From an uncultured bacterium (GTDB lineage: Bacteria > Patescibacteriota > Patescibacteriia > UBA9570 > XYC2-FULL-38-9), in contig CALKUP010000015.1 in assembly GCA_937996685.1 (NCBI GenBank), positions 7,900 through 71,899 on the forward strand: a stretch of DNA of 64,000 nt, given 5' to 3'. The notes beneath the pieces were generated by a model, which was given only the letters and a program-made list of their open reading frames with translations, did not search any database and had not been told where the DNA came from. Shown in pieces: positions 2,134 through 39,513 of this stretch (within the stretch, counting starts at the first letter, position 1; each line of letters opens with the position of its first letter). The position numbers were made by a program, and so were the translations under genes.

Positions 2134-3627
2134 ATGCAGATTTTTATTCATGGATTTATTTACACAGGCAGCGAAACCGAATGGGCGGACGCTCTTGTCA
2201 TTGACGGTGCTGGCATGATCTTGGCAGTTGGGTCACAAGAAGATCTACAGCGACGCTTCCCGAACGCGATTACAGAAGACCTGAACGGACAATATCTCTT
2301 CCCTGGTTTTATCGACGCACATTCACATCCTGCAATATTTTGTCGGGAAATTCGTGATCCCAATTTTGGCAACGTGCGCAACTGGAACATCGCGCGTTCT
2401 CACATTCAAGAATATATTCAAGCACACCCGAATCGTCCGTGGTATGTCATTTTTGGTTGGAATGAAAAAAAATGGGGCGAGCTCACTCAAGATATCCTCG
2501 ACACGGTGACCACAGACCACCCTCTCTTTATTATTCACGAATCAAATCAAAAGGGTGTTATTAACTCAATCGGAATTGAGACAATTCATGACACAGAAAA
2601 ACGACTTCGTCATACGAACGGTGTGATTCACGAACAAGATTTTCGGCGCGTACAAAAATACACCTTTCCATCATACGATGAAATCCTCACGCTCTTGCCA
2701 CGCTACCTGCGACAGATGCGACTCAACGGAACAACGACAGTCCACGACATGTTAGTCATGAGCATTGATCAGCTGCATGCATACATCACCCTTGATCAAG
2801 CAGGCCTCCTCCCATTAGAAGTCATTGTCTACCTCCATGAATCACTGCTGCACCACCCGGACATTGAAACGTACTTAAAATATACCGGCAAACACCTCAC
2901 GGTCGCGGGAATCAAAGTGTTCATCGACGGGACTGTTCGTGAGCACACTGCCCTGTTCCATGAACCATACAGCGATGGGATTGGCGGCACAGGACTTGCC
3001 AACGTCAGTGAAGAGACGATGCAAGAAATGATTGAACATGCGCAAGAGCTTGGTTTGCGAGATATTGCATTCCACGCCATTGGTGATGCTGGAGTGACTC
3101 GAGCAATTGACATGATTGAGTCGTATAAAAAAAATCAGCCCGACAGTCCGTTGCAATTTCGGATCGAGCACGCTGAATTTGTCCGACCTGCTGATTACAG
3201 CCGATTACATGATTTGGGCATTCGCGTTGTCGTTGAACTGACCAACGTTCTTGATCGCTTTCGATATGCTGACCGACTCGGATCACGCACCAAAGAAATC
3301 AACCGCTTAAAAGACTTGCGCGAAGCTGGCGTCTTTATCGGCACCGGCACAGAAGACAAAGGCATCACCCCAATGGGCGCCATTGCAGAAGCCGCAAAAA
3401 ATGACCTCCTCTCTGCACAGCGAATCTCAATTCACGATGGCTTTGAATTATTCCTCTCAGCTGGCGCAACACTCTCTCTGATGGATCAATTTATTGGATC
3501 ACTCGCGCCAGGCAAACGCGCAGACATGATGCTTTTGAGCGGAAATCCGTTTGAACGAGGCATTCAGCTACAGAGCGTTACGATCACCCAAACATGGTTT
3601 TCTGGCATCCCACAAAACATCCAATAG
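2134..3627 (+). CDS. metal-dependent amidohydrolase family protein
   Basis: 497-aa ORF with N-terminal FPGFIDAHSHP (the HxH metal-binding motif of the amidohydrolase superfamily) and later FHAIGD and IEHAEF motifs. Confidence 0.75.
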   Translation: MQIFIHGFIYTGSETEWADALVIDGAGMILAVGSQEDLQRRFPNAITEDLNGQYLFPGFIDAHSHPAIFCREIRDPNFGNVRNWNIARSHIQEYIQAHPNRPWYVIFGWNEKKWGELTQDILDTVTTDHPLFIIHESNQKGVINSIGIETIHDTEKRLRHTNGVIHEQDFRRVQKYTFPSYDEILTLLPRYLRQMRLNGTTTVHDMLVMSIDQLHAYITLDQAGLLPLEVIVYLHESLLHHPDIETYLKYTGKHLTVAGIKVFIDGTVREHTALFHEPYSDGIGGTGLANVSEETMQEMIEHAQELGLRDIAFHAIGDAGVTRAIDMIESYKKNQPDSPLQFRIEHAEFVRPADYSRLHDLGIRVVVELTNVLDRFRYADRLGSRTKEINRLKDLREAGVFIGTGTEDKGITPMGAIAEAAKNDLLSAQRISIHDGFELFLSAGATLSLMDQFIGSLAPGKRADMMLLSGNPFERGIQLQSVTITQTWFSGIPQNIQ

Positions 3628-3679: not shown

Positions 3680-3754
3680 GGTGGCTATAGCTCAGTTGGT
3701 TAGAGCATCGGTTTGTGGTACCGGGGGTCGTGGGTTCAAGTCCCATTAGCCACC
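3680..3754 (+). tRNA. tRNA-His (anticodon GTG) with encoded G-1
   Basis: GGTGGCTATAGCTCAGTTGGTTAGAGCATCGGTTTGTGGTACCGGGGGTCGTGGGTTCAAGTCCCATTAGCCACC. The anticodon loop TTGTGGT gives GTG. The extra 5' G pairs with discriminator C73, as is typical of tRNA-His. Confidence 0.85.
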
Positions 3755-3768
3755 CATGAAAAGAAAGG

Positions 3769-3792
3769 ATGTCCCTCAGGGGGCATTTTTTC
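3769..3792 (+). terminator. intrinsic terminator after tRNA-His and the amidohydrolase gene
   Basis: Hairpin ATGTCCC-TCAG-GGGGCAT (7 bp with one G-U wobble) followed by TTTTTT. Confidence 0.6.
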
Positions 3793-4114
3793 TTTTCATT
3801 TGTTGAATAAATGGACTTGAAGGGTATCCGAGATGACTGCCAAATGGCAGTCGACGAGGAACCCAGGTTTTGAAGGAGATGTGAGCCATGCCGCAAAGCG
3901 GCGGAGCGAGCATCGGGTGAAAAAAAGTCCCACCTATACCTTTATAAAATATTAGCTATCAAGAATAGGACTTCGATCGTATATTTGATTTGTTTATCAA
4001 AACAAGGTTCAATAGCTATATAACATTGTCGGAAAACCTTTTGCATCACAACAAATTAATATAATTTATATACTATATTCATACTTAAAATAAACATAAT
4101 ACATACTATTAATT

Positions 4115-4375
4115 ATGCAATTTATTAAAAAAACACTCGCTCATTTTACCGATATAATGCTTGTCGCAATATTAATTGTACTTATTTTAATTCTTCAAAA
4201 AATACCGCCTGCACAACATTTCTTAACTGCAAATGAAGCGGCGAATGCAAAAATTAACCCACGAGATCTACCTGCGGTTTATATTAAAAATAGCTCACTG
4301 ACTATCGACGGAACTGTAGATGTAGAAAAAATACAAGATAGGGTTGATGTAAAAATTGACGATAGTTTATTTTAG
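4115..4375 (+). CDS. hypothetical small membrane-anchored protein
   Basis: 86-aa ORF with an N-terminal hydrophobic helix, in a ~30% GC stretch. No homology recognised. Confidence 0.4.
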   Translation: MQFIKKTLAHFTDIMLVAILIVLILILQKIPPAQHFLTANEAANAKINPRDLPAVYIKNSSLTIDGTVDVEKIQDRVDVKIDDSLF

Positions 4376-4414
4376 ATATCGATAATTATAATAAACATTC
4401 AATACAATATTTGT

Positions 4415-4669
4415 ATGCTAAAGAACATTTTAAAAAAAATCCCTTGGGTTAAATTAGTGCTTATTTTAATAATTGTTTTAAGTGTTGTGTTTATTTTTTA
4501 TTGGTATTCATGGCAACCAACTGAAGCGCGGAAATCGTGCGACAATGAAGCAAGAGAGGGAGTAAAATCAAACATAGAAAAAAAGAACATAGAAAATAGC
4601 AGCGACCTCTACAGTACTTATACTACTTATTATGAGCGATGTTTGCATCAAAAAGGTTTAGCTAAATAG
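4415..4669 (+). CDS. hypothetical small membrane-anchored protein
   Basis: 84-aa ORF with an N-terminal TM helix, AT-rich, in tandem with the previous ORF. Confidence 0.4.
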   Translation: MLKNILKKIPWVKLVLILIIVLSVVFIFYWYSWQPTEARKSCDNEAREGVKSNIEKKNIENSSDLYSTYTTYYERCLHQKGLAK

Positions 4670-4735
4670 TAGAAGTATCTTCTATAACATTGAAACAAGA
4701 ACCTAATATTATAATCGAGGCACTTGCATTGTTTT

Positions 4736-5377
4736 TTACCAACTCGTTGAAATAGCAAATACCACCAGAAAAATAATACCTAGTCTAAACGTAACATTAA
4801 TATAACTAGGAAGTGCCTGATTAATTTTTTCAGCTGATTTTCTTTTTTGACTTGCCAACTCTTTTTGTTTTTCAAAAAACTGTAGATTGTTTGTCGTACT
4901 TTTTTTGTCTTCCTCTAAAGTCCCATCCCGCATAACTAACATTCCCAGTTCATGTAATGCAAGTTTGTTTTTCTTATCGCGCGCTTCAAAATCAGCGTAA
5001 TCACTCATAGTGTCCCAATACATGGCATCGAGATGACGTTTCGAGAATAAGAGCACTAAAGCAATCGTAATCGCAAAAAATATCCACGCGAGCCAAAGTG
5101 TATGAATGTTTGTTAAAAAGCATAATATCACCACTCGATTTAAATCATCAATTTTATCAATATAAGAAACCGACAATGCAATCGCGCCACCAGAAACCGT
5201 GCCTATATACGCGTAAAATTTAGCATACTCATTCAAAGTACTGCGGTTAGCGGTTTCAATTTTCTCTTTGTGTAACGGCCGTTTTTTATCAAGCTCTCGA
5301 CGCTCTTCCGCCACATCTTGTATCTGCAATTCTTTGTCCATAGGAATAAATCTACCATATACATTTATATGTTCCAA
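4736..5377 (-). CDS. hypothetical membrane protein
   Basis: 213-aa ORF with two central hydrophobic helices. No recognisable domain. Confidence 0.5.
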   Translation of the reverse strand: MEHINVYGRFIPMDKELQIQDVAEERRELDKKRPLHKEKIETANRSTLNEYAKFYAYIGTVSGGAIALSVSYIDKIDDLNRVVILCFLTNIHTLWLAWIFFAITIALVLLFSKRHLDAMYWDTMSDYADFEARDKKNKLALHELGMLVMRDGTLEEDKKSTTNNLQFFEKQKELASQKRKSAEKINQALPSYINVTFRLGIIFLVVFAISTSW

Positions 5378-5714
5378 GGATATTTATTTATTTGGTTACG
5401 CAAGTGCTTTGTTGAGACTGAAAGATATGCCATGTTAGTTGATATAACTGCATGTCCCTTCACGCAGAATTTGAAACTTTCCGCTTCTACTAAACATATA
5501 ACAATTCAGTCCGAACCTCATCCAGCAACCGACCGATGATAAGAAATGAACTTGAAGGGCATTGGCCGCTCAAGTGTTGTCTAAGGAAAATATAACCAAA
5601 GTTCTATAGAAAAACTCCGCTTCAAATGTAGATTTTTTTGATATAAAAAAAGGGTGACGAGGAGACGGCATCGACGAGCGCACAATTGCACTTGAAGTTG
5701 CCGCCCCCCGAGGC

Positions 5715-5960
5715 TCACTGCGGGACGCCGGGATTGGCGAGGTGGAACGCAAGCTTCACAACGAGAAGGCAGAGGATCATCGTCCCCAGACCACTCACCA
5801 TCCCACCCGCGCTGATGCTACCGAGCCTGTAGGACTTCGAACGGATGACGACCAAGCGACCGGGCTGCAGTGCCCCGATCACGCCGAAGATGGTCCCTGT
5901 GCCAAGACCAAGAGCCGCGCCGATCAGGCAGATCGGTTGTACGAGACCAAGGAGCTCCAT
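5715..5960 (-). CDS. small glycine-rich two-TM membrane protein (cassette copy 1); ends ...LAFHLANPGVPQ, loosely reminiscent of ATP synthase c-subunit C-termini but lacks the carboxylate
   Basis: 81-aa ORF in a GC-rich (~62%) stretch with a strong SD (AAAGGAGGAAGCC-ATG), GxxxG-rich TM1 and a second TM. Paralogous to 9550..9765, sharing an SxxYxLGxIS motif. Confidence 0.6.
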   Translation of the reverse strand: MELLGLVQPICLIGAALGLGTGTIFGVIGALQPGRLVVIRSKSYRLGSISAGGMVSGLGTMILCLLVVKLAFHLANPGVPQ

Positions 5961-6048
5961 GGCTTCCTCCTTTTGTAAGATGTCGCCTTGTTAAGTAAGC
6001 GACTACCATGGGTATTGCCAGCCTACCCCTAACAGCTGTTTTGTCAAC
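5961..6048 (-). promoter_or_regulatory. promoter (TTGACA-17-TAGGCT) plus conserved ~53-nt structured 5' leader of cassette copy 1
   Basis: Minus-strand read: TTGACAAAACAGC...TAGGCT...CCAUGGUAGUCGCUUACUUAACAAGGCGACAUCUUACAAAAGGAGGAAGCCAUGG. It has a GUCGCU/GGCGAC hairpin and two self-complementary CCAUGG sites, one at the start codon. About 87% identical to the leader of the paralog at 9766..9852. Confidence 0.5.
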
Positions 6049-6100
6049 GACAACAAGAATGCCGTGGAACATTAATCCACGCTTCCTCAACAAGCCGAAC

Positions 6101-6478
6101 TCAATGATTGTGGTCTGGTGTAAAAAATGTTATTTCAAATCCTTCAGGGTCAGCTATACAAAACGATGTGTCCCCCCAATCATTTTTCCGTATTGGAAAA
6201 ATAACACTTTCATCATCCTTAAACTTTTCCCAGATTGCATGCACATTGGAAACCCGCAAAGAAATATCGTTGCTGTAGGCCGCTCCATCACTTTGATGCG
6301 CGTCAGATAAAAGCTCAATAATGCCACTCCCCGTATCAAACATTACACCGCGATGCGCAGGACCATCATTCCATTCTGTACGTACGGAAAATCCAAGTGT
6401 GTCAGCATAAAATGCCCGAACACGATCAAAATACTTTGGGTATAATTTTAAACGAAATTCTAAAACGTCAATTTTCAT
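6101..6478 (-). CDS. VOC family protein (glyoxalase/bleomycin-resistance fold)
   Basis: 125-aa ORF whose length and motif spacing (MKIDVLEFRLKLYPKYFDRVRAFYADTLGF...GIIELL) fit a single VOC fold. Confidence 0.7.
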   Translation of the reverse strand: MKIDVLEFRLKLYPKYFDRVRAFYADTLGFSVRTEWNDGPAHRGVMFDTGSGIIELLSDAHQSDGAAYSNDISLRVSNVHAIWEKFKDDESVIFPIRKNDWGDTSFCIADPEGFEITFFTPDHNH

Positions 6479-6491
6479 AAGGGAATTCTAC

Positions 6492-6558
6492 AGGTTCTTA
6501 CTTCGTCCAGCAACCAACCTCATGATAAAAAAGGATGTCCTTCAGAGGCATTTTTTTG
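6492..6558 (+). repeat. degenerate copy of the tRNA-His 3' end plus its terminator (att-like direct repeat)
   Basis: CAGGTTCTTACTTCGTCCAGCAACCAACCTCATGATAAAAAAGGATGTCCTTCAGAGGCATTTTTTT aligns with 3732..3792 (TGGGTTCAAGTCCCATTAGCCACCCATGAAAAGAAAGGATGTCCCTCAGGGGGCATTTTTT). The terminator hairpin is preserved. Confidence 0.55.
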
Positions 6559-6576
6559 GAGCGCACTGTGCCTCAC

Positions 6577-7587
6577 CTACATCACTGACGGCAATACATC
6601 TTTAAACTGCTTAAAATGTTGCAACGCCCGATCCTGCAGCATTCTCTCTACCTCATCATTTTCCGCTCCCTCCTGATTTACAAAACGAACCAATATTGCC
6701 TTGCTATTTCTTTTGAGCTCATCAATAACCTCCTGAATATCTTGAACATACTGAGTGATAATTTCTTTAGCTTCCTGGATAGAGCACTGTAATTCTGTCG
6801 CGATACTATTCACAGTATTTTCATCAATACTATCGATATTGATATCTTGAATAGATGTATTTTCAGTTAACATTGAAAAAAGATACCATTCCAATTTTGG
6901 TGAATCAAGATACGAACCAAACACACCGCCATATATCAAATCAATCTGCACCAACTCCGCGAGCAACCATTCCTTCTCAATGGGCTCGTTACTATAGATG
7001 CGCTCTATATCAAAATGCTCATTTTCAACAAGCAATGAAGTCTTCTCTTTTTCAGCGTAAATAGTGGGTGATATAAACGCATGTGCTTGTGGCATTGCCG
7101 CATACAAACGTTGTTCCGCTGTATGACACTCCTCCATCGCCTCTCTATACTCCACTTCTAAATCATATCCAATATTTCGTAGCAGGATTGGATTTTTCTT
7201 ACACGTCTCAATCTGCTCTGGCGTTGCATTCCGCGGATAGAGCACGCCAAAATTCAACACATATTCAAATTTATCCATAGCCGACATACGCATCGGTCGA
7301 CCGTCCTTTCCAACACCTTCATCGGAAGTCCATTCAAATCCTGGAATGACGTAATTATGTGCGTCAAGAAATGTAAAAATCTTTTTTCTTATGTGACTTA
7401 GTGCTGTTTTATATGGCTGCAGTTCTGTTTTCAGAGAGGCATCCCAATTCTCCATTGCACTTGCGTATTCCATATCATTGCTCACCTTCTGGTGTACGAC
7501 TGGATTATTCATTTCTTCCCGAAAAAAAGCCCATGTACTATCAGCTTTTTCAGAATCAAACGCAATATATTGTATATCTATACTCAT
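6577..7587 (-). CDS. hypothetical protein
   Basis: The track ORF runs to a GTG at 7695. I prefer the ATG at 7587 (MSIDIQYIAF...) because the GTG start would overlap the divergent promoter region of the 7734 gene. No known domain. Confidence 0.5.
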   Translation of the reverse strand: MSIDIQYIAFDSEKADSTWAFFREEMNNPVVHQKVSNDMEYASAMENWDASLKTELQPYKTALSHIRKKIFTFLDAHNYVIPGFEWTSDEGVGKDGRPMRMSAMDKFEYVLNFGVLYPRNATPEQIETCKKNPILLRNIGYDLEVEYREAMEECHTAEQRLYAAMPQAHAFISPTIYAEKEKTSLLVENEHFDIERIYSNEPIEKEWLLAELVQIDLIYGGVFGSYLDSPKLEWYLFSMLTENTSIQDINIDSIDENTVNSIATELQCSIQEAKEIITQYVQDIQEVIDELKRNSKAILVRFVNQEGAENDEVERMLQDRALQHFKQFKDVLPSVM

Positions 7588-7733
7588 AGATCGATTGTAG
7601 TTGAGCGGCAATGTACTGTAAAGGACGTCTTTAAGATAAAAAAATAATCTGAGAGCGATGCCTTGATTTTTTAGCTCCGTTATTGTACACCACACCTACC
7701 GCAGTTTTGATCTCAACAGACACGGAGGTTCAC

Positions 7734-8177
7734 ATGCCTATTGTCCGGACCCTGAAACCTCATTGCGGCTACACTCGCCTCATGCTCCACAACACGTGGC
7801 GCAAGGATTGTGGCTTGTACTGGTTCATCGTGTTGCAGCTCGAGGACGATCTCCTGATCATTCTCTCGAATACCGAAGGAGAGCTCGCTCCAACAATTCG
7901 TCAACTGGCTCACAAGGCCATTGAGATGGAAATGGAGCCAATGAAGACGGACTCGCTGTTCACCGACATAATGCGCATCAACCCCGAAGCGCTGCCTATC
8001 GTTGCGACCGGTGCCCTGCACGTGTACAAGAGCGTTCTAGAGTCATACGGCTCCGATCAAGAGCTTTGGGATCGACGCGTTCTCTGGGCGCCGCACTCCC
8101 TAAACACAATGCTTTTAGATGTGCAACTCAACGACGCTGTCCAGGCAGGGATCGAGGAATTCCTCTGCCAGGACTAG
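7734..8177 (+). CDS. hypothetical protein encoded in a GC-rich (~57%) insert
   Basis: ATG at 7734 preceded by a GGAGG SD at -7. The track start (TTG at 7683) is less likely. A GCGGA/TCCGC hairpin plus T-run terminator follows at about 8192-8225. Confidence 0.55.
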   Translation: MPIVRTLKPHCGYTRLMLHNTWRKDCGLYWFIVLQLEDDLLIILSNTEGELAPTIRQLAHKAIEMEMEPMKTDSLFTDIMRINPEALPIVATGALHVYKSVLESYGSDQELWDRRVLWAPHSLNTMLLDVQLNDAVQAGIEEFLCQD

Positions 8178-8309
8178 GCGCTACCGGTCATAAAAAATCA
8201 CAGCACAATTTACTGTCGTTTGCGGACCTGACCACTCCGCTTTTTTTCTTATTATGATTTTTTGCTTCTCAATTTTATCTAGACTATACTAAAAAAATCT
8301 ACATACACT

Positions 8310-8888
8310 ATGAAATATCAAACACCTCTCATTGCAACAACCACCTTTTTAGGAGTCATTGTTCTCATAGGAATCTATCAATATGCCTTTAACAGTGACG
8401 GTGATCTATTTGATGCGTTACAATCATCATCTGCCGTCGAAACAACGTTTCATGAAAATACAGACAGGATAAATCAAATTCATACAACTACCAAGGAAAC
8501 GAACCAGAGCTTTTATTTGCGACCATGGACAACAGGCTGCATCAACACCCTTGATACACAATGCGTAGAAAAATCAGCACTAGACAGCATTGGTTTGCTT
8601 GCCTTTAAAACCGATCCGAAATTCAAACAGGTAGAGCACCTGAAAGAGTTTGGTGAATCAACTTGGTTTACATTTGATGAGCGAAAACATTTTGATAAAC
8701 GTCGAGAAATTGGCATCGTTCTTGTAGACGACCCTGACTCTTTTATCAAAACATTGCACGACTCTCCTTTTTACGAAAACATCGATCAGCTCGACAAACA
8801 CATTACAGAACACCCAACCGCAACCAGTTACGCATTTGCCCGTATAGAAAATGGTGTATACGTTTTTTATCAATACACGCCATATTAG
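8310..8888 (+). CDS. hypothetical membrane-anchored exported protein
   Basis: 192-aa ORF with an N-terminal TM helix (TTTFLGVIVLIGIY). No recognised domain. Confidence 0.55.
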   Translation: MKYQTPLIATTTFLGVIVLIGIYQYAFNSDGDLFDALQSSSAVETTFHENTDRINQIHTTTKETNQSFYLRPWTTGCINTLDTQCVEKSALDSIGLLAFKTDPKFKQVEHLKEFGESTWFTFDERKHFDKRREIGIVLVDDPDSFIKTLHDSPFYENIDQLDKHITEHPTATSYAFARIENGVYVFYQYTPY

Positions 8889-9025
8889 TTCAGTGGATAT
8901 ACAGTTCTCTTTTTTTTATAACGAACCTACACTCTTCCCTGTCATTTCATATAGATTTATATGTCTCTGTATGCTTAAATACAGGTATTATTTAATATAC
9001 GTATTTATTCAATATTCTACACACT

Positions 9026-9397
9026 ATGGCGACAATAAATCCTTGGATCAATTTTAATGGCAATGCTGAAGAAGCATTTGATTTCTATCAATCAGTGTTC
9101 GGCGGCGAAGTAACAAAAGCAGAAAATGGAATGTTTATTTCTTTGCCGATTGGTAAAGAGAATCGCCTCATTGCCAATAATGTTCCACCAGAAATGGGCC
9201 GTGTGAATGAAAATGAAAATAGAAGCAAAATTGCAGTGAGCGCGGAAAGCAAAGAAGAAGCTGATAGAATTTTTAACGGCCTTTCAGCGGGCGGTGCTGT
9301 TGAAGTGCCAATGTCTGATGGCATGGGATTCTATATGGGGATGTTTCGAGATCAATATGGCATTGAATGGATTATTGAATACACACCAAATAACTAA
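9026..9397 (+). CDS. VOC family protein (PhnB-like glyoxalase fold)
   Basis: 123-aa ORF: MATINPWINFNGNAEEAFDFYQSVFGGEV...MFRDQYGIEWII matches the PhnB-like VOC architecture. Confidence 0.75.
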   Translation: MATINPWINFNGNAEEAFDFYQSVFGGEVTKAENGMFISLPIGKENRLIANNVPPEMGRVNENENRSKIAVSAESKEEADRIFNGLSAGGAVEVPMSDGMGFYMGMFRDQYGIEWIIEYTPNN

Positions 9398-9422
9398 CTC
9401 TTCAAAAGTAATAAAAGACTAC

Positions 9423-9452
9423 AAAAAATCCGCTGACTATGCGGATTTTTTT
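9423..9452. terminator. bidirectional intrinsic terminator
   Basis: AAAAAA-ATCCGC-TGACTAT-GCGGAT-TTTTTT. It serves the + VOC gene and the minus-strand small-protein gene. Confidence 0.7.
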
Positions 9453-9549
9453 ATACGATACAATAAGAAATAAGGACAGGAGACGACTATCTTCAAGCGC
9501 GTGTTGCACTGAAAGTTGTCGTCTCCGAAAGATCAGCTTTCTTGCAAAG

Positions 9550-9765
9550 CTAGAAGTACTGCAAGTAATTGAAGATGATCAGCCCGCACGAGATACTCAT
9601 CAACCCAGCTGTAAAGGCAACGGATATAATCTTGCCTAAAGGGTACGTTTGAGAGCCAATAGGCACCGGGACAGTACTCTGGATCATGACGTTGACGCTA
9701 AAAAGAGCAACATAAGACGTCATCAACCCGCCAATCACGCACAGGATCGCAGCAAGGATCGCCAT
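9550..9765 (-). CDS. small two-TM membrane protein (cassette copy 2, paralog of 5715..5960)
   Basis: 71-aa ORF with SD AAAGGGAGGAAACC-ATG. The N-terminus aligns to copy 1 with a 3-codon indel, and the SQTYPLGKIIS motif matches SKSYRLGSIS. Confidence 0.55.
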   Translation of the reverse strand: MAILAAILCVIGGLMTSYVALFSVNVMIQSTVPVPIGSQTYPLGKIISVAFTAGLMSISCGLIIFNYLQYF

Positions 9766-9852
9766 GGTTTCCTCCCTTTGTACGATGTCGCTCTGTTGAG
9801 TAAGCGACGACCATGGATACTATAAACCTACCTTTTGTGGCTGTTTTGTCAA
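9766..9852 (-). promoter_or_regulatory. promoter (TTGACA-16-TAGGTT) plus conserved 5' leader of cassette copy 2
   Basis: Minus-strand read: TTGACAAAACAGCC...TAGGTT...CCAUGGUCGUCGCUUACUCAACAGAGCGACAUCGUACAAAGGGAGGAAACCAUGG. Same hairpin and paired CCAUGG sites as copy 1. Confidence 0.5.
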
Positions 9853-9907
9853 TAAAAAAGGCTCCATACAAAAAACGTCACATACGGATTGACCAACCGT
9901 TTTTTTA

Positions 9908-10687
9908 TTATGACCGCACTTCAACCGAAGGGTTCGTAAAACGCTCTTGAAGATCTGGATTATTCTGACATTGCTGTACAAGCGTGAAAAACGCATCTTG
10001 CATTAATGCAACCTCTACTTCATTATGTTGATTTGTCCAAGGCGCACTTCTATCCACAACACCCAAAACACTGAGAGTTGGATCAGCAATAGATTTCAGT
10101 AAATTCGACTTCTTCCCAGATCGTAACAATAAAGAAACGAGTGCTTTCATTTTTTCTGCATACTCCGCAGAAATCAAACCGCGCTGCACTTTTGCATCCA
10201 GCGACAGTGGCCGTGTTTCCTCTCCTGCCTGTACAACACGCGCATCAACAAGAAGTGTCTGTATTCCAGAAGTGATAGACTGATATTCATCAAACATTTG
10301 ATCTGTGTTCAACTCCTGAGGCAATGCTGTAAGCATACGATTGATAAGCTCTCTAAAATAGATTGAAGTCGCCTGGTTCATAGGACTGCGATTACGCTCT
10401 CCTTTATCTATCTCGCGCTTAGTTAAACTGGTCATTTCATGAGGCGTCATGGGCACTGTTCGGTGTAATCGTTGTTTTATTTCAACAAACGACTCAGCTA
10501 ATGCATCTTCACCTTGAGCACTGATTAACGCAAAAATATCTCTTTCCATTTGAGCATCTTTCTGCTCGCGAGCTTCTTGATCTTCCCGAGCCTCTCTTTC
10601 TTTTCGGAGCTCATCATCTGCTTCTGTAAAAACAGGACGCTTAGGGCCTCGGTCAAATGAAGGCATAACAAATATATTTAGTATCAA
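9908..10687 (-). CDS. hypothetical protein (charged, Glu/Arg-rich N-terminal region)
   Basis: 259-aa ORF with no recognisable domain. An internal ATG 7 codons downstream is an alternative start. Confidence 0.5.
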   Translation of the reverse strand: MILNIFVMPSFDRGPKRPVFTEADDELRKEREAREDQEAREQKDAQMERDIFALISAQGEDALAESFVEIKQRLHRTVPMTPHEMTSLTKREIDKGERNRSPMNQATSIYFRELINRMLTALPQELNTDQMFDEYQSITSGIQTLLVDARVVQAGEETRPLSLDAKVQRGLISAEYAEKMKALVSLLLRSGKKSNLLKSIADPTLSVLGVVDRSAPWTNQHNEVEVALMQDAFFTLVQQCQNNPDLQERFTNPSVEVRS

Positions 10688-10764
10688 TACTCTTACAAGG
10701 GATATCCTAGCAAAAGGCTAAATCCTTCACAAGCAATCACCATAAACCAATTCTTCATGCAAGG

Positions 10765-12521: not shown

Positions 12522-12758
12522 ATGAAAACAATGACCTGCAAACAACTCGGCGGACCATGTGAGATGGCATTTCACACCAACACTGCTGATGAAGCAATTA
12601 AAGCCCAAGACAAACACTTGAAAGAAATGGTTGCTCAAGGCGACGTCGCACACGAACCAGCGAATACAGAAATGCGTGGTCGTTGGAAAAACCCAATTGG
12701 GGGCATAAAGTGGTATATGAAAGCGAAAAAAGATTTCGCTGCATTGTCTGAAGAATAA
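12522..12758 (+). CDS. DUF1059 family small protein
   Basis: Preferred start MKTMTCKQLGGPCEMAFHTNTADEAIKAQDKHLKEM... matches the conserved DUF1059 N-terminus (MxxMxCxxLGGxC). The track ORF begins upstream at 12474. Confidence 0.7.
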   Translation: MKTMTCKQLGGPCEMAFHTNTADEAIKAQDKHLKEMVAQGDVAHEPANTEMRGRWKNPIGGIKWYMKAKKDFAALSEE

Positions 12759-12772
12759 TTATTTTCATACCT

Positions 12773-13333
12773 ATGGCAAAAAAATCTCTTTCTGCAAAAC
12801 AACAAACTGAATTACTTAGTACATTGCAAACTCGTTTTGAAAAAAACATGAATCGCCACAAAGGCGTGAAATGGGACGCTGTTGCAAAACGACTTGAAGC
12901 AAAACCAGCAGCACTCTGGTCACTCTTTCAAATGGAAGAAACCGGCGGTGAACCTGATGTCGTTCGGATCAATAAAAAAACTAGTGAACTCTTGTTTATT
13001 GACTGCGCTCCAGAAAGTCCGAAAGGTCGCAGAAGTTTTTGCTTTGATCGCGCTTCCCTGAATTCTCGCAAAACCTTTAAACCAAAAAATAGCGCACTCG
13101 ATGCAGCAAAAGAAATGGGTATTGAAATTCTCACAGAGGAAGACTATCGTTTCCTGCAAACCCTTGGCGAATTCGATACCAAAACATCCAGCTGGATCGC
13201 AACCCCAACAGAAATTCGAAAACGCGGCGGCGCACTATTTTGTGACCGACGATATGACCATGTTTTCGTTTATCACAATGGCGCAGAATCATATTACGCA
13301 GCCCGTGGATTCCGAGGCTCACTGTTAGTGTAA
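12773..13333 (+). CDS. hypothetical protein (DUF4256-like, from memory)
   Basis: 186-aa soluble ORF. The family assignment needs an HMM check. Confidence 0.5.
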   Translation: MAKKSLSAKQQTELLSTLQTRFEKNMNRHKGVKWDAVAKRLEAKPAALWSLFQMEETGGEPDVVRINKKTSELLFIDCAPESPKGRRSFCFDRASLNSRKTFKPKNSALDAAKEMGIEILTEEDYRFLQTLGEFDTKTSSWIATPTEIRKRGGALFCDRRYDHVFVYHNGAESYYAARGFRGSLLV

Positions 13334-14156: not shown

Positions 14157-17100
14157 CTATTTGCTTACAGCGAAAGTTCCGTTAGTCTTGAGCTTCCATG
14201 TGCGACTCACGCGTTTGCCTGATTTGCCATAGGTCACAGTCACTTGTTTCTTTTTTGTATTCACCGACAAGACTGGCTTTGATAAGTCGGTCACAGTAAG
14301 CGATTGTGATTGCTGTTTTGTGAGCGTATGCGCAGTTGTTAAACGCATTCCATAGACTCGCGCAGTCTTTCCTTTGACTGCTGCAATAAAGACTGAATCA
14401 TAACTATTGTATACCCGAGTCACAGCAATGCGATAATTTGCGCTTGTGTAGGCTGTTTTTCCAATTGTTTTTTTCGCTACTTGTACTCCATTTTTAAAGA
14501 CACGAACATCTTTACCGTTTGTTACAACAATACGCTTTTTATCTGTCGATAAGGCATATCGAAAATTTTTCGACGTTCCAAATGGTCTGAGTGTTGCAGT
14601 TGTTGTATCAGCATATGTCACTGTCAGCGCGGCACCACTTTGACGCACCGTCCGCACTGCTCCGTGATCTACCGGCGTTGTATCAACTGGCTCTGGAACA
14701 ACTTCAGGAGCGACAACCGTTACTGTGCGAGTCACTTCTGTTGCGGCATTTCCTGTACTATCTTGCACGTTATACCGCAATGTATATGTCCCAACAGTAT
14801 TCACATCAACGCTACCCGTTTGCACAATACTACTGGTGACCACACCCTGGACCGCATCTGTCGCTGTTGCTCCAGCGTCCGTATAACTATCACCTTGCGT
14901 GATTGTGACCGCGGAATTGCCAAGCAATGAAATCGTTGGTGCTGCCCGATCAAGTGTCACAGTAGACGCGACAGCTGATACTGTTGTATTTCCAAGTGCG
15001 TCTTGATACCGCAGTGTCACTGTGTACACACCGTCTGCCAAAGTTGATGCAGACGCAGAAGTAACATGGCTAGAAGTAAATAAATTTGAAAGTTGAAGCG
15101 TACTATTTACAGATTGCGTTGTATCCATCAACAACGTTGTTGAGCCGCTGGCATTATCAAATGACACTGAAATAGTGTTTGATTGTGGCCCTTCTGGAAG
15201 AGAATATTGCAATTGCAACGCGTTATTAAAACTACTGCTCGCAGGTGATGTGAGCGTCGGGGTTTGGGTTGTTGTATCAATAATAACACTCGTTGCAACA
15301 GCACTCGTTGCTGGATTATTACGACCATCACGATAACTAAGTGTCACAGTGTGTGTTCCGTCAGCAAGGACTGGCATCGCACTTGGCGTAATCGTATTGA
15401 TATTTGAAAGATTATCAAAATTTACTTGATTGCCACTATCTGCAGGATTAAACAAAAAATTCACTGACTGACTATTTTCCATTTGGAATACTACCGTGCC
15501 ACTGGTTGCTACATTCGTGAATGTGACACGCACGCTTCCGGCAAGTGGTGCTTCTGGAAGAGAATATTGCAGACGGACTCGATTCATCGATCCTGACCCT
15601 GGCGATGACAATGTTGGTGATTGCGTAACAGTGTCAACTGTAACCGTCGTTTGCGCTGCAACAGAAATATCCCCTTCATCATCCACGGAAAAAATACTGT
15701 AGTAATAAAGACGATCCAGCAAATCATTATCTGAACGTGTTGTTCCGGTCACACCACTCGCAACAGCTGAGCCATCCGTCACACTCGTCGGATACGCTGA
15801 TGTACTACGACGAATTGTCACTGACGAAAAATGCGGATCGGTTGAATTTGTCCACGCAAGGTTCACGTCATTCCCAACAGCTGTCGCAGTAAAAGCCGTC
15901 GGCGGAGTGGTATAGCCTAATTCGTACGCACCAATATCACAATTGGTATTTTGCGGGCGAGAAGTTTGCCGTGAATCTGTTATAAGAGCCGAACCAGCTG
16001 CATCTGTACATGACACAGGCGGGATAAGATTTAATGTATCACCAACTCCTGACAATGCGAGTGTTTGCACAAAACCTCCATTATTTGCCGGCACCGCTGT
16101 TGCCATGTAACTCGGTGGCACTGGATGATTGAATGAATCTCCTGTCACTGAGGTGATAAAACAATCTTCTCTTAATTCCCCAATATAATTATAGCCTTGT
16201 GATGTAAGGTTTCCTTGGCAATCCTCATAAAAAGGTGATGGCATTGGAGCAACAAAATTGGATGCAATAATGTTATTTTTCAGAATAACATTACTAAATC
16301 CCCCACTATAGACACCAGCTGCAATACCTGCATGATTATTTGTAAAGGTTGAAAACGCAATCACAATTTCTGGTGTATCACCTGTACTTGAATTGAATCC
16401 ACCCCCAGTATCAGATGCGGTATTATTATAAAACGTACCATTAGTAATCTGCATTGGCGTGCCAGCAAATACACCACCTCCAGCCACCGCTGTGTTCTCA
16501 ATAAAGGTGACACGATTCATAACAATTGGATTATTCCCTTCAGGCCCAGAACCAGAAAGACCTCCACCAGCATCTACCGCTGCTGTATTATTTGTAAACT
16601 CAACATCGGTGAGCGTATTGGTTGTTGTTGTGTTTGTATCAATAAACATACCACCGCCACTAGCAGCTGAGTTTCCAGAAATGATTGTACGACTGATATC
16701 AGATGTACAATCACCTGAAATTCCGATACCGCCACCAAACACTGTTTGCACCCCTGGATCAGCTGACATGTTGCCACTCACTGTCACATCCGTCAGTGTT
16801 ATATCCCCGGCTGCACAATAGATACCAGCGCCATACTGCGAAATAATCCCACTTGGGTTATCAAGGACACTATTTTGGATTGTCACATGTGAAAACACCA
16901 ATGAGCCCTCATTTAATACACCGCCACCATTTGCACTGGTCACTGAACTGTCATTCACAGTCACACCAGACATTGTCGCTCGCGCCCCGCTGGCAATATG
17001 AAAAGCACGGTCAAGATCATCTGAGTCAATAATGGTCGTTGCCATGTCAGCGCCAGTCACGGTTGTGAGGTCTGCATCAAGAAAGTCAAAATCACCCGTT

Positions 17101-17351
17101 ACATTCAAGTCTTCACCTGCTCCTGATCGTGTAATATGGTACGTATTTGCTGGCAACACAATCGTATCAACACCTCCACTATTTGCCGCAGTCACTGCTT
17201 CACGCAACGAACAATCGGAGTCACATGTACCGTCGGCTGTATCGGTATTTTTTGTGACTGTATACGTTGCGGCGTGTGCAACTGTTGGCGTCAATCCAAT
17301 AAGAACAAAGAAGAGAATTGATAACGCGCTACCATAAAATATTTTCAGCAT
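14157..17351 (-). CDS. giant secreted right-handed beta-helix protein with Ig/FN3-like domains and a conserved C-terminal module
   Basis: 1064 aa with a signal peptide. N-terminal CDSDCSLREAVTAANSGG then many PbH1-type repeats (NNTA..GGG). Thr/Ser-rich Ig-like segments follow. The C-terminal ~170 aa are homologous to the C-terminus of the 18990..25397 protein. Confidence 0.85.
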   Translation of the reverse strand: MLKIFYGSALSILFFVLIGLTPTVAHAATYTVTKNTDTADGTCDSDCSLREAVTAANSGGVDTIVLPANTYHITRSGAGEDLNVTGDFDFLDADLTTVTGADMATTIIDSDDLDRAFHIASGARATMSGVTVNDSSVTSANGGGVLNEGSLVFSHVTIQNSVLDNPSGIISQYGAGIYCAAGDITLTDVTVSGNMSADPGVQTVFGGGIGISGDCTSDISRTIISGNSAASGGGMFIDTNTTTTNTLTDVEFTNNTAAVDAGGGLSGSGPEGNNPIVMNRVTFIENTAVAGGGVFAGTPMQITNGTFYNNTASDTGGGFNSSTGDTPEIVIAFSTFTNNHAGIAAGVYSGGFSNVILKNNIIASNFVAPMPSPFYEDCQGNLTSQGYNYIGELREDCFITSVTGDSFNHPVPPSYMATAVPANNGGFVQTLALSGVGDTLNLIPPVSCTDAAGSALITDSRQTSRPQNTNCDIGAYELGYTTPPTAFTATAVGNDVNLAWTNSTDPHFSSVTIRRSTSAYPTSVTDGSAVASGVTGTTRSDNDLLDRLYYYSIFSVDDEGDISVAAQTTVTVDTVTQSPTLSSPGSGSMNRVRLQYSLPEAPLAGSVRVTFTNVATSGTVVFQMENSQSVNFLFNPADSGNQVNFDNLSNINTITPSAMPVLADGTHTVTLSYRDGRNNPATSAVATSVIIDTTTQTPTLTSPASSSFNNALQLQYSLPEGPQSNTISVSFDNASGSTTLLMDTTQSVNSTLQLSNLFTSSHVTSASASTLADGVYTVTLRYQDALGNTTVSAVASTVTLDRAAPTISLLGNSAVTITQGDSYTDAGATATDAVQGVVTSSIVQTGSVDVNTVGTYTLRYNVQDSTGNAATEVTRTVTVVAPEVVPEPVDTTPVDHGAVRTVRQSGAALTVTYADTTTATLRPFGTSKNFRYALSTDKKRIVVTNGKDVRVFKNGVQVAKKTIGKTAYTSANYRIAVTRVYNSYDSVFIAAVKGKTARVYGMRLTTAHTLTKQQSQSLTVTDLSKPVLSVNTKKKQVTVTYGKSGKRVSRTWKLKTNGTFAVSK

Positions 17352-18989: not shown

Positions 18990-21900
18990 TTATTGTTTTT
19001 TCAATGCACCGCTTGATTGCACAAGCCATGTATATGATTGCTTTTTCTTGCCTGAACCAAAAGTGGTTGTGAGTTGTTTTTTCTTTACAGAGAACCCAAT
19101 ATTGAGTTTTGTATTACTTTGAATTTTGACTGTTTGAGCAGTTTTTTTCTTTAACCCATTCCCTGTTGTGAGCTGATGCGCAAAGACTGTTGCCGTCGTC
19201 TTTTTTGGAGCGATTGTGACAAAGACTGAGTCAAAATTCTTGTGCACTTTTCTGACAGAAAGTGTGTATTGTCCTTTTTGTACTGTTGCGTTTCCAAGTT
19301 TCGCTCGCGCAACCCGACGACTATTTGCAAACACGCGAATTTCTTTTCCGTTTGTCGCAACGATCCGTTTTTTATTACTTGATAACGTATAGAGAAAGTT
19401 TGCAGACGTTCCAAATGGTTGAATTGTCGCTGTTGTCGCATCACGATATGTCACAAGTAACTGGTTGTTGATTTTTTGTACAGTCGTAATGACTCCATCA
19501 TTTGTTGTTGTGACAGGTGGCGTTGTCGGAGTTTCTGTTGTCGTTCCTGGATCAGTAGCCGGCTCATCAACTGGACAACCCGTCGTCGTAAAGATCCCAG
19601 CATCTGATGTCGAGCGATTACCAGAAGTATCGGCGGATGACGCAGTATATTGATACGTTGTACATGCCGTGAGACCAGACAGCAATACAGCATGGCTGGT
19701 CACACGTGGCGCAAAGTCTACTTCTGCAGTTGTTGTCGTTGACCCGCCAACCGGACCATATGACACGCGACTTGATGACGCTTCATTCGTTGTCCATGTG
19801 ATAGTAGCTCCTGTTGTCGCTGGCGTTGCGCTCAACGCTGTAATAGCTGGGGGCGTACTATCATCCATGCCCCCAATAGACCACAGCTCTCGCCCATAGG
19901 CCTGGGATTGCGCAGTAAATACTGCTCCACCCCCAAAACCAAGTACCGTCGATGGATCGCTGCCCAATAGGCCTGGATTAATATCAGACAGCATGTATGT
20001 CCCGTTTGATGTTCCGTCTGAACGCCACAACTCTAGACCATGTGCTCCATCGTGTACTTGAAAATATAATATCCCATTGACTGCACTAAAATCACCCCAA
20101 CTCGAATTATTCGCACTTGTCACTTCTTTTACTTGAACTGTTCCTTCAGTTGTACCATCCGTTTTCCATAATTGGGGAAACCCAGATCCGTTATCGGCGG
20201 TAAAAAAGAGTGAACCGCCAACGATGGTTAAATTCCCTGGATAGCTATCACCTCCTGTGTTTTCATTGATATCTTTTACCAGCGCTGTTCCTTCTTCTGT
20301 TCCATTTGATTTCCAGAGCTCCGTGCCACCTTCATTACTATTGTATGCAGAAAAATACATCCAATCATTCAGCACAACCATACTGCTCGGCAAGGCACTG
20401 CAATCAGGACAGAGATCAACTGCGAGTACTGTTCCTTCAGTTGTGCCATCAGTCTTCCATAACTCATACTCATGAGAATCATCACTAGCAGTAAAATACA
20501 ACGTACCGTGATACTCAACAAATCCAAATGGACCACTGCCTGTACTGCCTGGGAATATATCTTTCACGAGCGTTGTTCCTTCTTCTGTTCCATTAGATTT
20601 CCACAATTCAAAACCATGAGCGCTGTCATATGCAGAAAAATATAACTCACTATTGTATGTAAATCCACCCTGGATATAGGACATTCCCTCTTCATTTACA
20701 TCTTTTACGAGCGCTGTTCCTTCGGTTGTACCGTCCGTCTTCCATAACTCGTAACTATGCGTTCCATCATCAGCGGTAAAATACAGAGCATTACCAACTA
20801 TCTTAAAATTATATGGATATGAATTATCAACTCCTGTAAAAATATCTTTTACCATTACTGTTCCTTCTTCAGTTCCATCAGTCTTCCATAGTTCGTAGCC
20901 ATGCGTTCCGTCATCAGCGGTGAAATATGTAACACCATCGAGGTAGATAAAACCGTATGGATAACTACTACCACTTGGACGAATATCTTTTAATAATTGC
21001 GTACCCTCTGCTGTGCCGTCTGATACATACACCTCTGCGCCAGTGGACGGATGTGACGCAACACCAATTAAGCGACTCCCTGCAACAATAAAATCTGCCA
21101 CACTTCCACCAGTTCCGCTGCTGTCATTTACTTCAGCGACCATGGAAAAATTATTTTCAGTGGTGCTAAATTTCCACAAACGTTGACCGCTGTCGCCATT
21201 GTCTCCGGCAAATAACAGATTCGTCCCATTTATCGTAAACCACTCTATGCCATCACCTGTTGGGTTCAGATCCTCAACCATCAATGTTCCTTCTTCAGTT
21301 CCATCAGTCTTCCATAGTTCATAGCCATGCGTTCCGTCATCAGCGGTGAAAAAGACCTGACCGTCTACAATAGTAAACATTCGTATATCCAGACTACGAT
21401 CACCTTCGTTAATATCTTTCACCAACGTTGTTCCTTCAGTTGTGCCGTCGGTCTTCCATAACTCGTAGCCATGCGTTCCGTCATTTGCAGCAAAAAATAA
21501 TGTTGAGCCAGTGCCAAAAAACATTCCCGGACTAGCATTTGCGCTGCCAGGATTAATATCTTTCACCACATAGGTTCCTTCATCAGTTCCATCAGTACGC
21601 CAGAGCTCAGAACCATTTGTACTATTTGTGAGCTGGTAATAACCAATGCCATTAAAACTATACACATCACCAATGGTAACTCCAGAGCCGATTGGTTCAA
21701 TGTTCTTAATCAAATATGTGCCACGAGCAGTTCCGTTTGTTCTCCATAACTCCCAACCATTTACACCATCATCAGCTGCAAACACCACTGTTCCATCCCC
21801 TATCTGAGTAAAGAAACAAGCATATGAACCATATGATCCCGCATTCACATCTTTCACCATACGTGTTCCGTTTGGCGTTCCATCAGTTTTCCATAACTCA

Positions 21901-37713: not shown

Positions 37714-39513
37714 CTACTGCCAACCGGCCACACGTGCGCCGGTTTTGTCTTTTGTGCCGAAATACACCTCTGTCATGATGGCTTTCTGTTTTGGTTGAAT
37801 TTTAAATAATCGCACCATTGACTGACCAGCGCTTGCCTGACTTGTTAAAATTTCATCTTTCCCATCGCCATTCGAATCGTAACTCGCGACATCAATCGTG
37901 CCATAAAATGACCGTGAGAATGGTTCAATAACCGTTCGGCCCTTGGTTGGATTCGCAAACGGAATCGCAATGACTCTTCCTGGTCGCCCGCCGGTCGCTG
38001 TCACTCCGACAATCACTTCATCAATACCATCTCCGTTCACATCGCCGGCTGCTACATTCGCACCCTTTGTATATTTCTTTGTGAGTACAGTAATTTTTTT
38101 CAAACGCTCACCAGACAATCGATTCACGATTGCCACTGTCGTTGTTTTGCTCGCACGGGTTGTTGTAATGATTTCATCAATCCCATCCCCGTTCACATCG
38201 CCGGCTGCTACATCCAAGCCTTCTTTTTTTGTTTTTTCAAACGGCGCGAATTCACCAATCAGTGAACCATTCATTGAAAAGACACGAACATTTTTTTGCG
38301 ACCCTGGTCCGTATGCAACAATAATTTCATCGGTTCCATCGCCGTTCACGTCGCCGGCTGCAACGCGTGCTGAAGACTGCGACTGATATGGATACGCTTG
38401 AAAGCGTGAAACACGAATCCCTTCGCTATCAAACACCGACACCATTGCATTACTACCACCGCGCACTGTCACTGTTTCTTGTGAACCATCACCATTCAAA
38501 TCACCGGTCGCAACATCACCACTTTCTTTTGATGCACTTGATTGCGGCGCTAACGTGCGCTCAATGCCACCGGATTGATAGATCACATGCGCAAGCATTC
38601 CAGTTCCACGACGCTTCAATACAACACCACCCAGCGCTGTATTCATCCGCATGTTCCGGCTCAATTTTACAATCTTACGTGTTTGATTTCCAAGCCGGTC
38701 AGTTCCAGTGATTTTTACATAACTTTTTCCATTGTCCATATTCGGCAACGCGATTGTCACACGATATGGATATGATGCGCTTTTATTATATTCCGCAACT
38801 TTTTTCCAGGTTGCTTGTGAATCTTCTGACACTTCAACGACTGTCGTATTCATTAAACTCCCTAAATCCTGTGCATCAATCGTAAATCGCAATGTGTCCC
38901 CAACAATTGAACTACTTGAAAACACTGCGCTGATTGTTGGACGGAAACGATCTTTTGTTAAACGATCAGCAATAAATCGACCTGGATCATGCCAGTACAT
39001 TTCTGTTGCCTTAGAGCGTACATGACCATAATAAATCCAGACTGCGCTGTACGCATCTTTGTGAATCCCAAAATGTAAATGTGGTGTCCAGCCGCCATTT
39101 TCTGCACTTGTTCCAAGACTCCCAACACGATCGCCCATCCGCACTACTTCTCCAACAGCCACCGGTTGATCCGATGGTTTTAAATGACCATATAACGAGA
39201 CTACCTTTGTTCCGTCAGAGAGCGTGTGTTCAATTAATACAACAAGGCCAAAAGAAGTGCGCTCTTGCACTTCTTTCACGACCCCATCACCAACTGCATA
39301 CACTGGCGCGCCAGCTCCAAGCTCTCCTCCAAGATCAACACCCATGTGATACGCGCCTGAACTCAACAAATCACCTTGTTCTGTCACAAGGTTCCAGGTC
39401 CGCATCGGATAAATAAACGTTTTTGCAACCGGAGTTGCAGCTTGTGATTGCGTCGGGAAAAACACCGACAAGAATACAAACGATAACAGAACGCGAACAA
39501 TCAACTGTTTCAT
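37714..39513 (-). CDS. secreted M23 (LytM) peptidase fused to FG-GAP/VCBS repeats
   Basis: Signal peptide; HMGVDLGG...HLHFGIH M23 motifs; then five GDxNGDGxDEIxx FG-GAP-type repeats. Confidence 0.85.
   Translation of the reverse strand: MKQLIVRVLLSFVFLSVFFPTQSQAATPVAKTFIYPMRTWNLVTEQGDLLSSGAYHMGVDLGGELGAGAPVYAVGDGVVKEVQERTSFGLVVLIEHTLSDGTKVVSLYGHLKPSDQPVAVGEVVRMGDRVGSLGTSAENGGWTPHLHFGIHKDAYSAVWIYYGHVRSKATEMYWHDPGRFIADRLTKDRFRPTISAVFSSSSIVGDTLRFTIDAQDLGSLMNTTVVEVSEDSQATWKKVAEYNKSASYPYRVTIALPNMDNGKSYVKITGTDRLGNQTRKIVKLSRNMRMNTALGGVVLKRRGTGMLAHVIYQSGGIERTLAPQSSASKESGDVATGDLNGDGSQETVTVRGGSNAMVSVFDSEGIRVSRFQAYPYQSQSSARVAAGDVNGDGTDEIIVAYGPGSQKNVRVFSMNGSLIGEFAPFEKTKKEGLDVAAGDVNGDGIDEIITTTRASKTTTVAIVNRLSGERLKKITVLTKKYTKGANVAAGDVNGDGIDEVIVGVTATGGRPGRVIAIPFANPTKGRTVIEPFSRSFYGTIDVASYDSNGDGKDEILTSQASAGQSMVRLFKIQPKQKAIMTEVYFGTKDKTGARVAGWQ

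Follow-up and report, generated by a model that had tools for sequence, protein, structure and literature searches.

How can two genes in one genome keep nearly the same promoter and leader RNA when the proteins that they encode have drifted almost out of recognition? The question is raised by two small minus-strand genes in a stretch of 64,000 nucleotides (nt) from contig CALKUP010000015.1 of an uncultured member of the Patescibacteriota (the whole stretch is referred to below as the window). Each gene is part of a self-contained unit, which extends over about 6054..5607 in copy 1 and about 9859..9420 in copy 2, and in which a sigma-70-like promoter is followed by a leader some 53 nt long, a strong Shine–Dalgarno (SD) sequence, a small open reading frame (ORF) and a terminator with a 48-nt hairpin. 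The answer towards which the analysis leans, tentatively, is that these are old paralogous, self-contained and probably acquired units, whose promoter, leader and terminator have been selectively maintained, and whose leader would limit translation initiation and probably stabilise the messenger RNA (mRNA).

Conserved non-coding blocks and drifted coding sequences

A direct repeat of 100 nt (5948-6047 and 9753-9852) is common to the two units, with an identity of 79%. When copy 1 was compared with copy 2 by blastn, a core of 64 nt, running from CCATGG to +12, was found to be 85.9% identical (55/64, E = 4e-10), and from the -35 hexamer to the ATG (94 nt) the identity was 76%. An earlier, first-pass annotation of this DNA had put the identity of the upstream 95 nt at about 87%, a figure that holds for the core but not for the longer segments. 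In a sliding-window profile, the similarity begins about 7 nt 5′ of the -35 hexamer, reaches its maximum of 80-90% in the leader, drops to 20-55% in the coding sequence, and returns to 65-70% at a conserved 3′ element and then again at a second terminator-like hairpin. No other site in the window matches the leader pattern, for which the chance expectation is 0.

The coding sequences made it feasible to ask how old the split is. The aligned codons have a nucleotide identity of 44%, and the 21 identical residues are encoded by the same codon in five cases and share the third base in only six, so that the synonymous sites are saturated. The promoters, in turn, alternate between perfect and scrambled blocks: the -35 hexamer with its extension, TTGACAAAACAGC, is identical at 13/13 positions, the next 7 nt of the spacer at 1/7, the GGTAGG around the -10 at 6/6, and the 8 nt between the -10 and CCATGG at 3/8. 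This alternation points to a split of long ago, after which purifying selection acted on the non-coding parts, and, together with the saturated neutral sites, it excludes a recent duplication in which only the coding sequence was relaxed, the scenario that the first-pass annotation had named as refuting its idea. By this comparison, the non-coding blocks are under purifying selection and the split is old. The annotation's central claim, that the non-coding sequence is conserved above the coding sequence, is therefore borne out by a leader that is 86% identical next to saturated synonymous sites and a scrambled promoter spacer.

The proteins themselves are more difficult to relate. They are 30% identical in a MAFFT alignment, slightly more than the quarter of identical residues given before, and have the collinear motifs C-x-I-G and S-x-x-Y-x-L-G-x-I. 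By tblastn without composition correction, each ORF is the best match of the other in the window (E = 0.03-0.045), whereas BLASTP with composition correction gave E = 2. Because this similarity is marginal, the paralogy of the two ORFs, which had been taken for granted, is probable and not proven. That both are coding is supported by a frame that is open from the same conserved ATG, by the codon-position periodicity of GC and by two hydrophobic segments in each protein; the C-termini read HLANPGVPQ (81 residues) and NYLQYF (71 residues). An AlphaFold2 (AF2) model of the copy 1 protein consists of a helix (3-31), a short beta-hairpin (36-45) and a second helix (46-75), with a predicted local distance difference test score (pLDDT) of 73.5. 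The coding sequences have a GC content of 62% (copy 1) and 48% (copy 2), and a GC content at third codon positions (GC3) of 0.74 and 0.65, compared with 0.30-0.49 in 20 other genes of the window, in agreement with the raised GC reported earlier. The strong SD sequences likewise stand: they read AAAGGAGGAA and AAGGGAGGAA, 5 nt ahead of the ATG in each copy. Upstream out-of-frame ORFs, which start from the AUG of the first CCAUGG (6009..5818, MVVAYLTRRHLTKGG..., 63 codons; 9814..9698, MVVAYSTERHRTKGG..., 38 codons; both on the minus strand), were considered as well, but two synonymous versus five non-synonymous differences and the unequal lengths speak against coding by this frame (MVVAY...).

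Predicted folds of the leader and the 3′ end

The hexamer CCAUGG occurs twice in each leader, at 6011..6006 and 5962..5957 in copy 1 and at 9816..9811 and 9767..9762 in copy 2, as the first-pass annotation had seen, and their pairing is compatible with both sequences. In the proposed fold, the 5′-terminal CCAUGGU would pair with the RCCAUGG that holds the start codon (P1, 7 bp), and this helix would enclose a hairpin (P2, 7 bp, GUCGCUU-8 nt-ARGCGAC) and leave the SD in a single-stranded, A-rich segment of 18 nt. A conserved 6-bp hairpin had been placed immediately 5′ of the SD; its arms, GUCGCU(U)...(A)RGCGAC, are indeed present in both copies, but it ends 11 nt before the SD. All 14 pairs of P1 and P2 can form in both copies. 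Among the seven differences between the leaders, three lie inside helices and all of these preserve pairing (U-A to U-G), while four are at unpaired positions. The energy of the combined fold was calculated as -17.1 kcal/mol for copy 1 and -16.5 kcal/mol for copy 2, and the predicted probability that the AUG is unpaired as 8% for copy 1 (at 37 °C) and 44% for copy 2.

A P1/P2 fold of this kind would limit the translation initiation of a potentially membrane-active protein, and the base-paired 5′ end, together with the long 3′ hairpin, would stabilise the mRNA. The protein, in turn, would need only to remain a hydrophobic helical hairpin, so that its sequence could drift freely when the RNA and promoter elements were held by selection. 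That P1 and P2 form in vivo is inferred, and so are the way in which they act on translation and mRNA stability and the function ascribed to the protein. Known translation-occluding 5′ untranslated regions (UTRs) and 5′ stabiliser stem-loops offer a partial parallel, as they likewise have a 5′ end paired with the start-codon region, a hairpin near the 5′ end and a strong SD. They differ in that the SD is single-stranded here, that its accessibility is predicted to be insensitive to temperature, and that there is no likeness to ROSE, fourU or the other thermometers of Rfam. The predicted probability that the SD and AUG are unpaired shifts by 0.11 at most from 15 to 45 °C, an almost flat response that speaks against the RNA thermometer suggested in the first-pass annotation.

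Several observations weigh against the proposed role of the leader. Its folding is no more stable than that of shuffled sequences (z = -1.5 and -1.6). No double compensatory changes were found in it; with two sequences compared, such a count has no statistical power, and the shuffle control made for the count is uninformative. In copy 2, the minimum-free-energy fold favours an extended P2 over P1. Nucleotides in the loop and the single-stranded segments are conserved beyond what structure explains, which suggests a binding partner. The -10, at a spacing of 16 nt in both copies, is a weak one, and judged from its position transcription would begin near 6013 in copy 1 and near 9818 in copy 2; the proposed promoter was not listed by a consensus promoter scan.

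At the 3′ end, the picture of the first-pass annotation had to be redrawn. The conserved 22-nt element that it described is present in both copies (5700..5678 and 9518..9497), but it does not stand alone, being the apical part of the 48-nt hairpin, which is read as an intrinsic terminator because it is followed by a run of U. All 14 of the pairs compared can form in both copies; one change is compensatory (G-C to A-U), two others are wobble changes, and the fold has a z of -3.4 in copy 1 and -3.9 in copy 2. Since the G-U pairs of P1, P2 and the 3′ stem work on the sense RNA only, they favour a function in the mRNA over one in an antisense RNA or in a DNA palindrome. The second terminator-like hairpin beyond each unit's terminator recurs in a related strain (locus L007, at 1771-1810) beside an unrelated gene, and was for this reason taken as generic intergenic sequence and not as a specific part of the cassette. 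The reverse complement of the SD and start region of copy 1 (5951-5966, plus strand) also scores as terminator-like, and this site is not kept in copy 2.

Table 1. Positions of the elements of the two units in the window (L007 is a locus of a related strain, on a JGI contig)
Feature	Position	Strand	Evidence or remark
Copy 1 -35 TTGACA (6047..6042) with 7-nt extension AAACAGC	6035..6047	-	13/13 identical to copy 2
Copy 2 -35 TTGACA (9852..9847) with AAACAGC	9840..9852	-	sequence comparison
Copy 1 -10-like TAGGCT	6020..6025	-	16-nt spacer, GGTAGG conserved; putative, from sequence reading
Copy 2 -10-like TAGGTT	9825..9830	-	putative
Copy 1 5′ leader, about 53 nt	5961..6013	-	start placed from the -10
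Copy 1 P1, 5′ strand CCAUGGU	6005..6011	-	extreme 5′ end of leader; pairs with 5963..5957
Copy 1 P2 hairpin GUCGCUU-ACUUAACA-AGGCGAC	5982..6003	-	7 pairs in both copies; 2 one-sided changes still pair
Copy 1 SD core GGAGG	5966..5970	-	5 nt ahead of ATG, within 18-nt unpaired A-rich stretch
Copy 1 P1, 3′ strand GCCAUGG	5957..5963	-	start codon inside; pairing check of both copies
Copy 2 5′ leader	9766..9818	-	P1 9816..9810 with 9768..9762; P2 9808..9787; SD 9775..9771
Copy 1 coding sequence	5715..5960	-	81 amino acids, two predicted membrane helices, short basic loop
Copy 2 coding sequence	9550..9765	-	71 amino acids, two predicted membrane helices
Copy 1 intrinsic terminator	5645..5719	-	48-nt hairpin 5708..5661, lower stem to 5719/5654, U7 5651..5645; contains conserved CAACUUCAAGUGCAAUUGUGCGCU
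Copy 2 3′ hairpin GGAGACGAC...GUCGUCUCC	9479..9526	-	conserved apical element, then U-rich tail; fold and pair counts
Second, degenerate hairpin of terminator type downstream of copy 1, AAAAAAUCUAC...GCGGAGUUUUU	5607..5644	-	homologous to 9420..9464
Bidirectional terminator, common to copy 2 and the convergent PhnB/VOC gene 9026..9397	9423..9451	-	terminator scan; L007 homology ends at 9428

Searches for relatives and genomic surroundings

The search for relatives was carried out at the level of the RNA, the protein and the whole unit. Rfam, which the first-pass annotation had proposed to scan for riboswitches, gave no cis-regulatory family at the gathering threshold and nothing relevant on either cassette even at E <= 10. 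A profile search of the peptide, likewise proposed there, yielded Pfam matches to Romo1 (PF10247; 14.7 bits versus a gathering threshold of 27.6) and DUF378 (PF04070; 14.2 bits versus 25), both below threshold, and nothing above threshold was found in Pfam, NCBIfam, PHROGs or PADLOC. Word-indexed searches for homologues, run with each protein, returned no match, and an exhaustive HMMER search of 1.84 billion representative proteins with a two-sequence profile gave none either; a sequence search of the PDB and a Foldseek search with the AF2 model found only generic helical hairpins, at E >= 1.2. The leader pattern had no matches in genome contigs (596 Gb), metagenome contigs or viral contigs. 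A relaxed pattern gave three matches in metagenomes, all of them chance occurrences within GTPase or other coding sequence, and relaxed patterns of the leader, the 3′ element and the promoter gave none in viral contigs. Nothing relevant was found by blastn against plasmids and phages. A covariance model of the P1+P2 leader, run with filters off, recovered only the two copies in the window, and had no match in 12 related loci. The gene would thus stand, on these searches, as an orphan small membrane-protein gene with a predicted translation-occluding leader and no relative in the genome, metagenome or viral collections; these collections appear to lack the window's own genome, so that a missing self-match is not informative and further copies in that genome may exist.

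Both units sit in a mosaic region adjoining tRNA-His. The convergent PhnB/VOC gene next to copy 2 has a homologue that is 98% identical at L007, and a second sample of the same strain was available as locus L016. This strain shares five segments with the window (3752-3932, 7724-8252, 8911-9428, 12751-13333 and 14189-15776) at 81-98% identity, and neither cassette is present at the two syntenic sites of L007 and L016. There, the homology breaks at 9428 and 5643, exactly where each unit has its 3′ border, and the sites are taken up by other genes, including TrmB-family regulators. More distant PhnB loci lack the cassette too, and the amidohydrolase neighbour at 2134..3627 has relatives at 24-31% identity only. 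Because the related strain is without both units at the syntenic sites, and because their GC3 is atypical, the units are strain-variable and probably acquired, as the first-pass annotation had suggested in calling the cassette mobile or acquired. An integron cassette was considered and rejected: the hairpin arms lack the core motifs of attC (RYYYAAC ... GTTRRRY), and each unit has a promoter to itself. Among the nearby ORFs scanned, none turned out to have an integrase domain, and neither terminal inverted repeats nor target-site duplications were seen around the unit.

The mosaic character of this region is apparent in other respects as well. From 3756 to 10700, the window is hypervariable relative to L007 downstream of tRNA-His, with patches of 81-98% identity interleaved with entirely different genes, and at places occupied by other ORFs in the window, L007 carries four genes for TrmB-family regulators. 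An intergenic repeat, AGGTCCGAACCTCGTCCAGCAACCGACC, followed by a terminator hairpin (CATGATAAGAAAGGATGTCCCTCAGGGGCATTTTTT), occurs in the window at 3755-3791, 5509-5549 and 6492-6557 and in L007 at 120-183. The first of these repeats abuts the 3′ end of tRNA-His, and two of them enclose the copy 1 cassette with the VOC gene 6101..6478 in a module of about 985 bp, so that the repeats may be module boundaries of a mosaic island. A gene of the glyoxalase/VOC superfamily adjoins each cassette, at 6101-6478 (minus strand, upstream and in the same direction) for copy 1 and at 9026-9397 (plus strand, convergent, PhnB-like) for copy 2, which may be a coincidence since both genes lie outside the duplicated segment. 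A third GC3-rich gene (7735-8177, plus strand, GC3 0.68), with no family match and a probable start at ATG 7735 behind GGAGG, is kept in L007 at 8021..8464 with 82% nucleotide identity. An ENA contig of 1.3 kb from another sample is 100% identical to 8112-9418 and ends a few bases before the terminator of copy 2, where, at a coverage of 2x, the end may be an assembly break. Farther away, the window encodes large surface-type proteins (18990-25397, 14157-17351 and 37714-39513 on the minus strand and 56181-58220 on the plus strand), namely one of 2135 amino acids, one of 1064 amino acids that carries a bacterial Ig-like domain, an M23 peptidase with FG-GAP repeats and a protein of the VanW/PG_binding_4 type, and also a PilB-type ATPase at 43361-45217. 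Taken with one named PhnB homologue, this set of genes would point to a Patescibacteria-like organism.

Competing explanations and the meaning of the units

The tentative reading of old, selectively maintained units can be carried further. The P1/P2 leader might be a previously undescribed cis-regulatory RNA that gates orphan two-helix membrane proteins and is opened by processing, by a factor acting in trans or by a ligand, with the whole unit exchanged horizontally as a module; in this extended form, the proposal is doubtful.

Regulation might instead act on the DNA, with the conserved blocks as operators to which one transcription factor binds in both units; the RNA fold would then be incidental. 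Candidates for such sites are TTGACAAAACAGC, the inverted repeat GTCGC-N12-GCGAC (roughly +11 to +32) and both CCATGG palindromes. Such a role would explain why the perfect 13-nt block reaches 7 nt past the -35 hexamer, why the half-sites of the inverted repeat are about 1.5 helical turns apart, and why the sequence between them, not required for a hairpin loop, is conserved; the island of the related strain is, in addition, rich in TrmB-family regulators. The outer stem positions, however, form no pair other than G-U (in copy 1, U21-G32 and U14-G56; in copy 2, U22-G31) and are for this reason not symmetric as DNA. The 3′ hairpin, clearly a terminator that works as RNA, has the same pair-preserving pattern, and the surroundings of the cassettes in the window yielded no recognisable regulator gene. 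Operators of this kind are therefore considered an unlikely explanation.

An explanation without any special leader function would be that promoter and UTR were copied or homogenised between older, unrelated or distant ORFs, by promoter reuse or by gene conversion of the flanks. The marginal similarity of the proteins would fit with this, as would the surrounding island, a mosaic with shared intergenic terminators, and promoter reuse ahead of unrelated genes has been documented (Matus-Garcia et al. 2012, PMC3488235). The putative mobile promoters of that study resemble the present case in the closely similar promoter and leader that stand before strongly diverged genes in one genome. They differ in that the downstream genes here are collinear weak homologues and that the 3′ terminator is conserved too, which suggests that the whole unit, and not the promoter alone, shares ancestry. 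Moreover, the seven leader differences are evenly spread and leave no identical tracts, the spacer is scrambled between perfect blocks, unlike in a copied tract, and the similarity continues in register into the N-terminal codons and reappears at the collinear protein motifs and at the terminator. Copying of the flanks thus seems improbable.

The resemblance to type I toxin-antitoxin loci was given particular attention. Here, a membrane-damaging peptide would be encoded by a primary transcript locked by its leader, and an antisense small RNA over the 5′ leader or the 3′ hairpin would, through RNA-RNA contact, account for the conserved UTRs. Duplication with similarity beyond the coding region was itself a search criterion for such loci (Fozo et al. 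2010, PMC2887945), and the units have this property along with a small hydrophobic product and strain variability. Their start codons are predicted to be occluded, as in the primary transcripts of tisB, dinQ and zorO, which are typically translationally inert (PMC5066626, PMC11228461), and the full-length fold of either copy has its SD paired to the U-rich 3′ tail. The known loci (ldr/rdl, ibs/sib, zorO/orzO, tisB/istR and dinQ/agrB) share with the units a small hydrophobic membrane protein, UTR similarity between duplicates, a predicted initiation-blocking 5′ fold and variability among strains. Their toxins, on the other hand, are as a norm hydrophobic proteins of less than about 70 amino acids that cross the membrane once and have a C-terminus of polar or aromatic character (Fozo et al. 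2010); the present proteins, which are hydrophobic too, exceed this norm with 71 and 81 amino acids and two predicted membrane helices. A promoter scan found no promoter-like site on the plus strand in or beside the conserved blocks, and no small RNA is detectable. The G-U pairs present in every helix would become A-C mismatches on an antisense RNA. The distances to the next genes, about 140 nt upstream and 150-340 nt downstream, fall below the spacing criteria of Fozo et al., and the leader and the 3′ element have no excess complementarity or specific pairing with each other, their duplex being weaker than that of shuffled controls. Neither their sequences nor Rfam link the units to any known family, and the sole antitoxin-family match, to OrzO-P, reached 25.8 bits against a threshold of 60 and lay on the terminator. 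On balance, a type I locus is quite unlikely.

Very unlikely, finally, is the idea of the first-pass annotation that the start codon is opened on a signal by a new ligand-sensing riboswitch or a thermometer: the leader is conserved above neutral sites, its loop nucleotides are kept as those of a binding pocket would be, and alternative folds exist (P1 or an extended P2, with the SD pairing to the conserved CUCCUUG / AUCCUUG at +5..+13), but about 50 nt in two simple helices would be very small for an aptamer, the predicted accessibility is nearly constant with temperature, the downstream gene hints at no ligand, Rfam gave no match, and nothing comparable was found in the genome, metagenome and viral collections searched. 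Known riboswitch classes are typically widespread. The small ones (fluoride/crcB, guanidine-II and -III/SMR, preQ1-I) are similar in that a short conserved leader stands directly before a small membrane-protein gene, and dissimilar in that here a covariance-model match, a phylogenetic spread and a recognisable aptamer architecture are all lacking.

As it stands, the pair of units is a two-copy family from a single genome without outside relatives, and it does not change current views. If the leader does gate translation, it would join a compact orphan regulatory RNA to a small membrane protein that is an orphan as well, in an uncultivated lineage that has been little studied, and would be a clean case of UTRs that have outlived their coding sequence.

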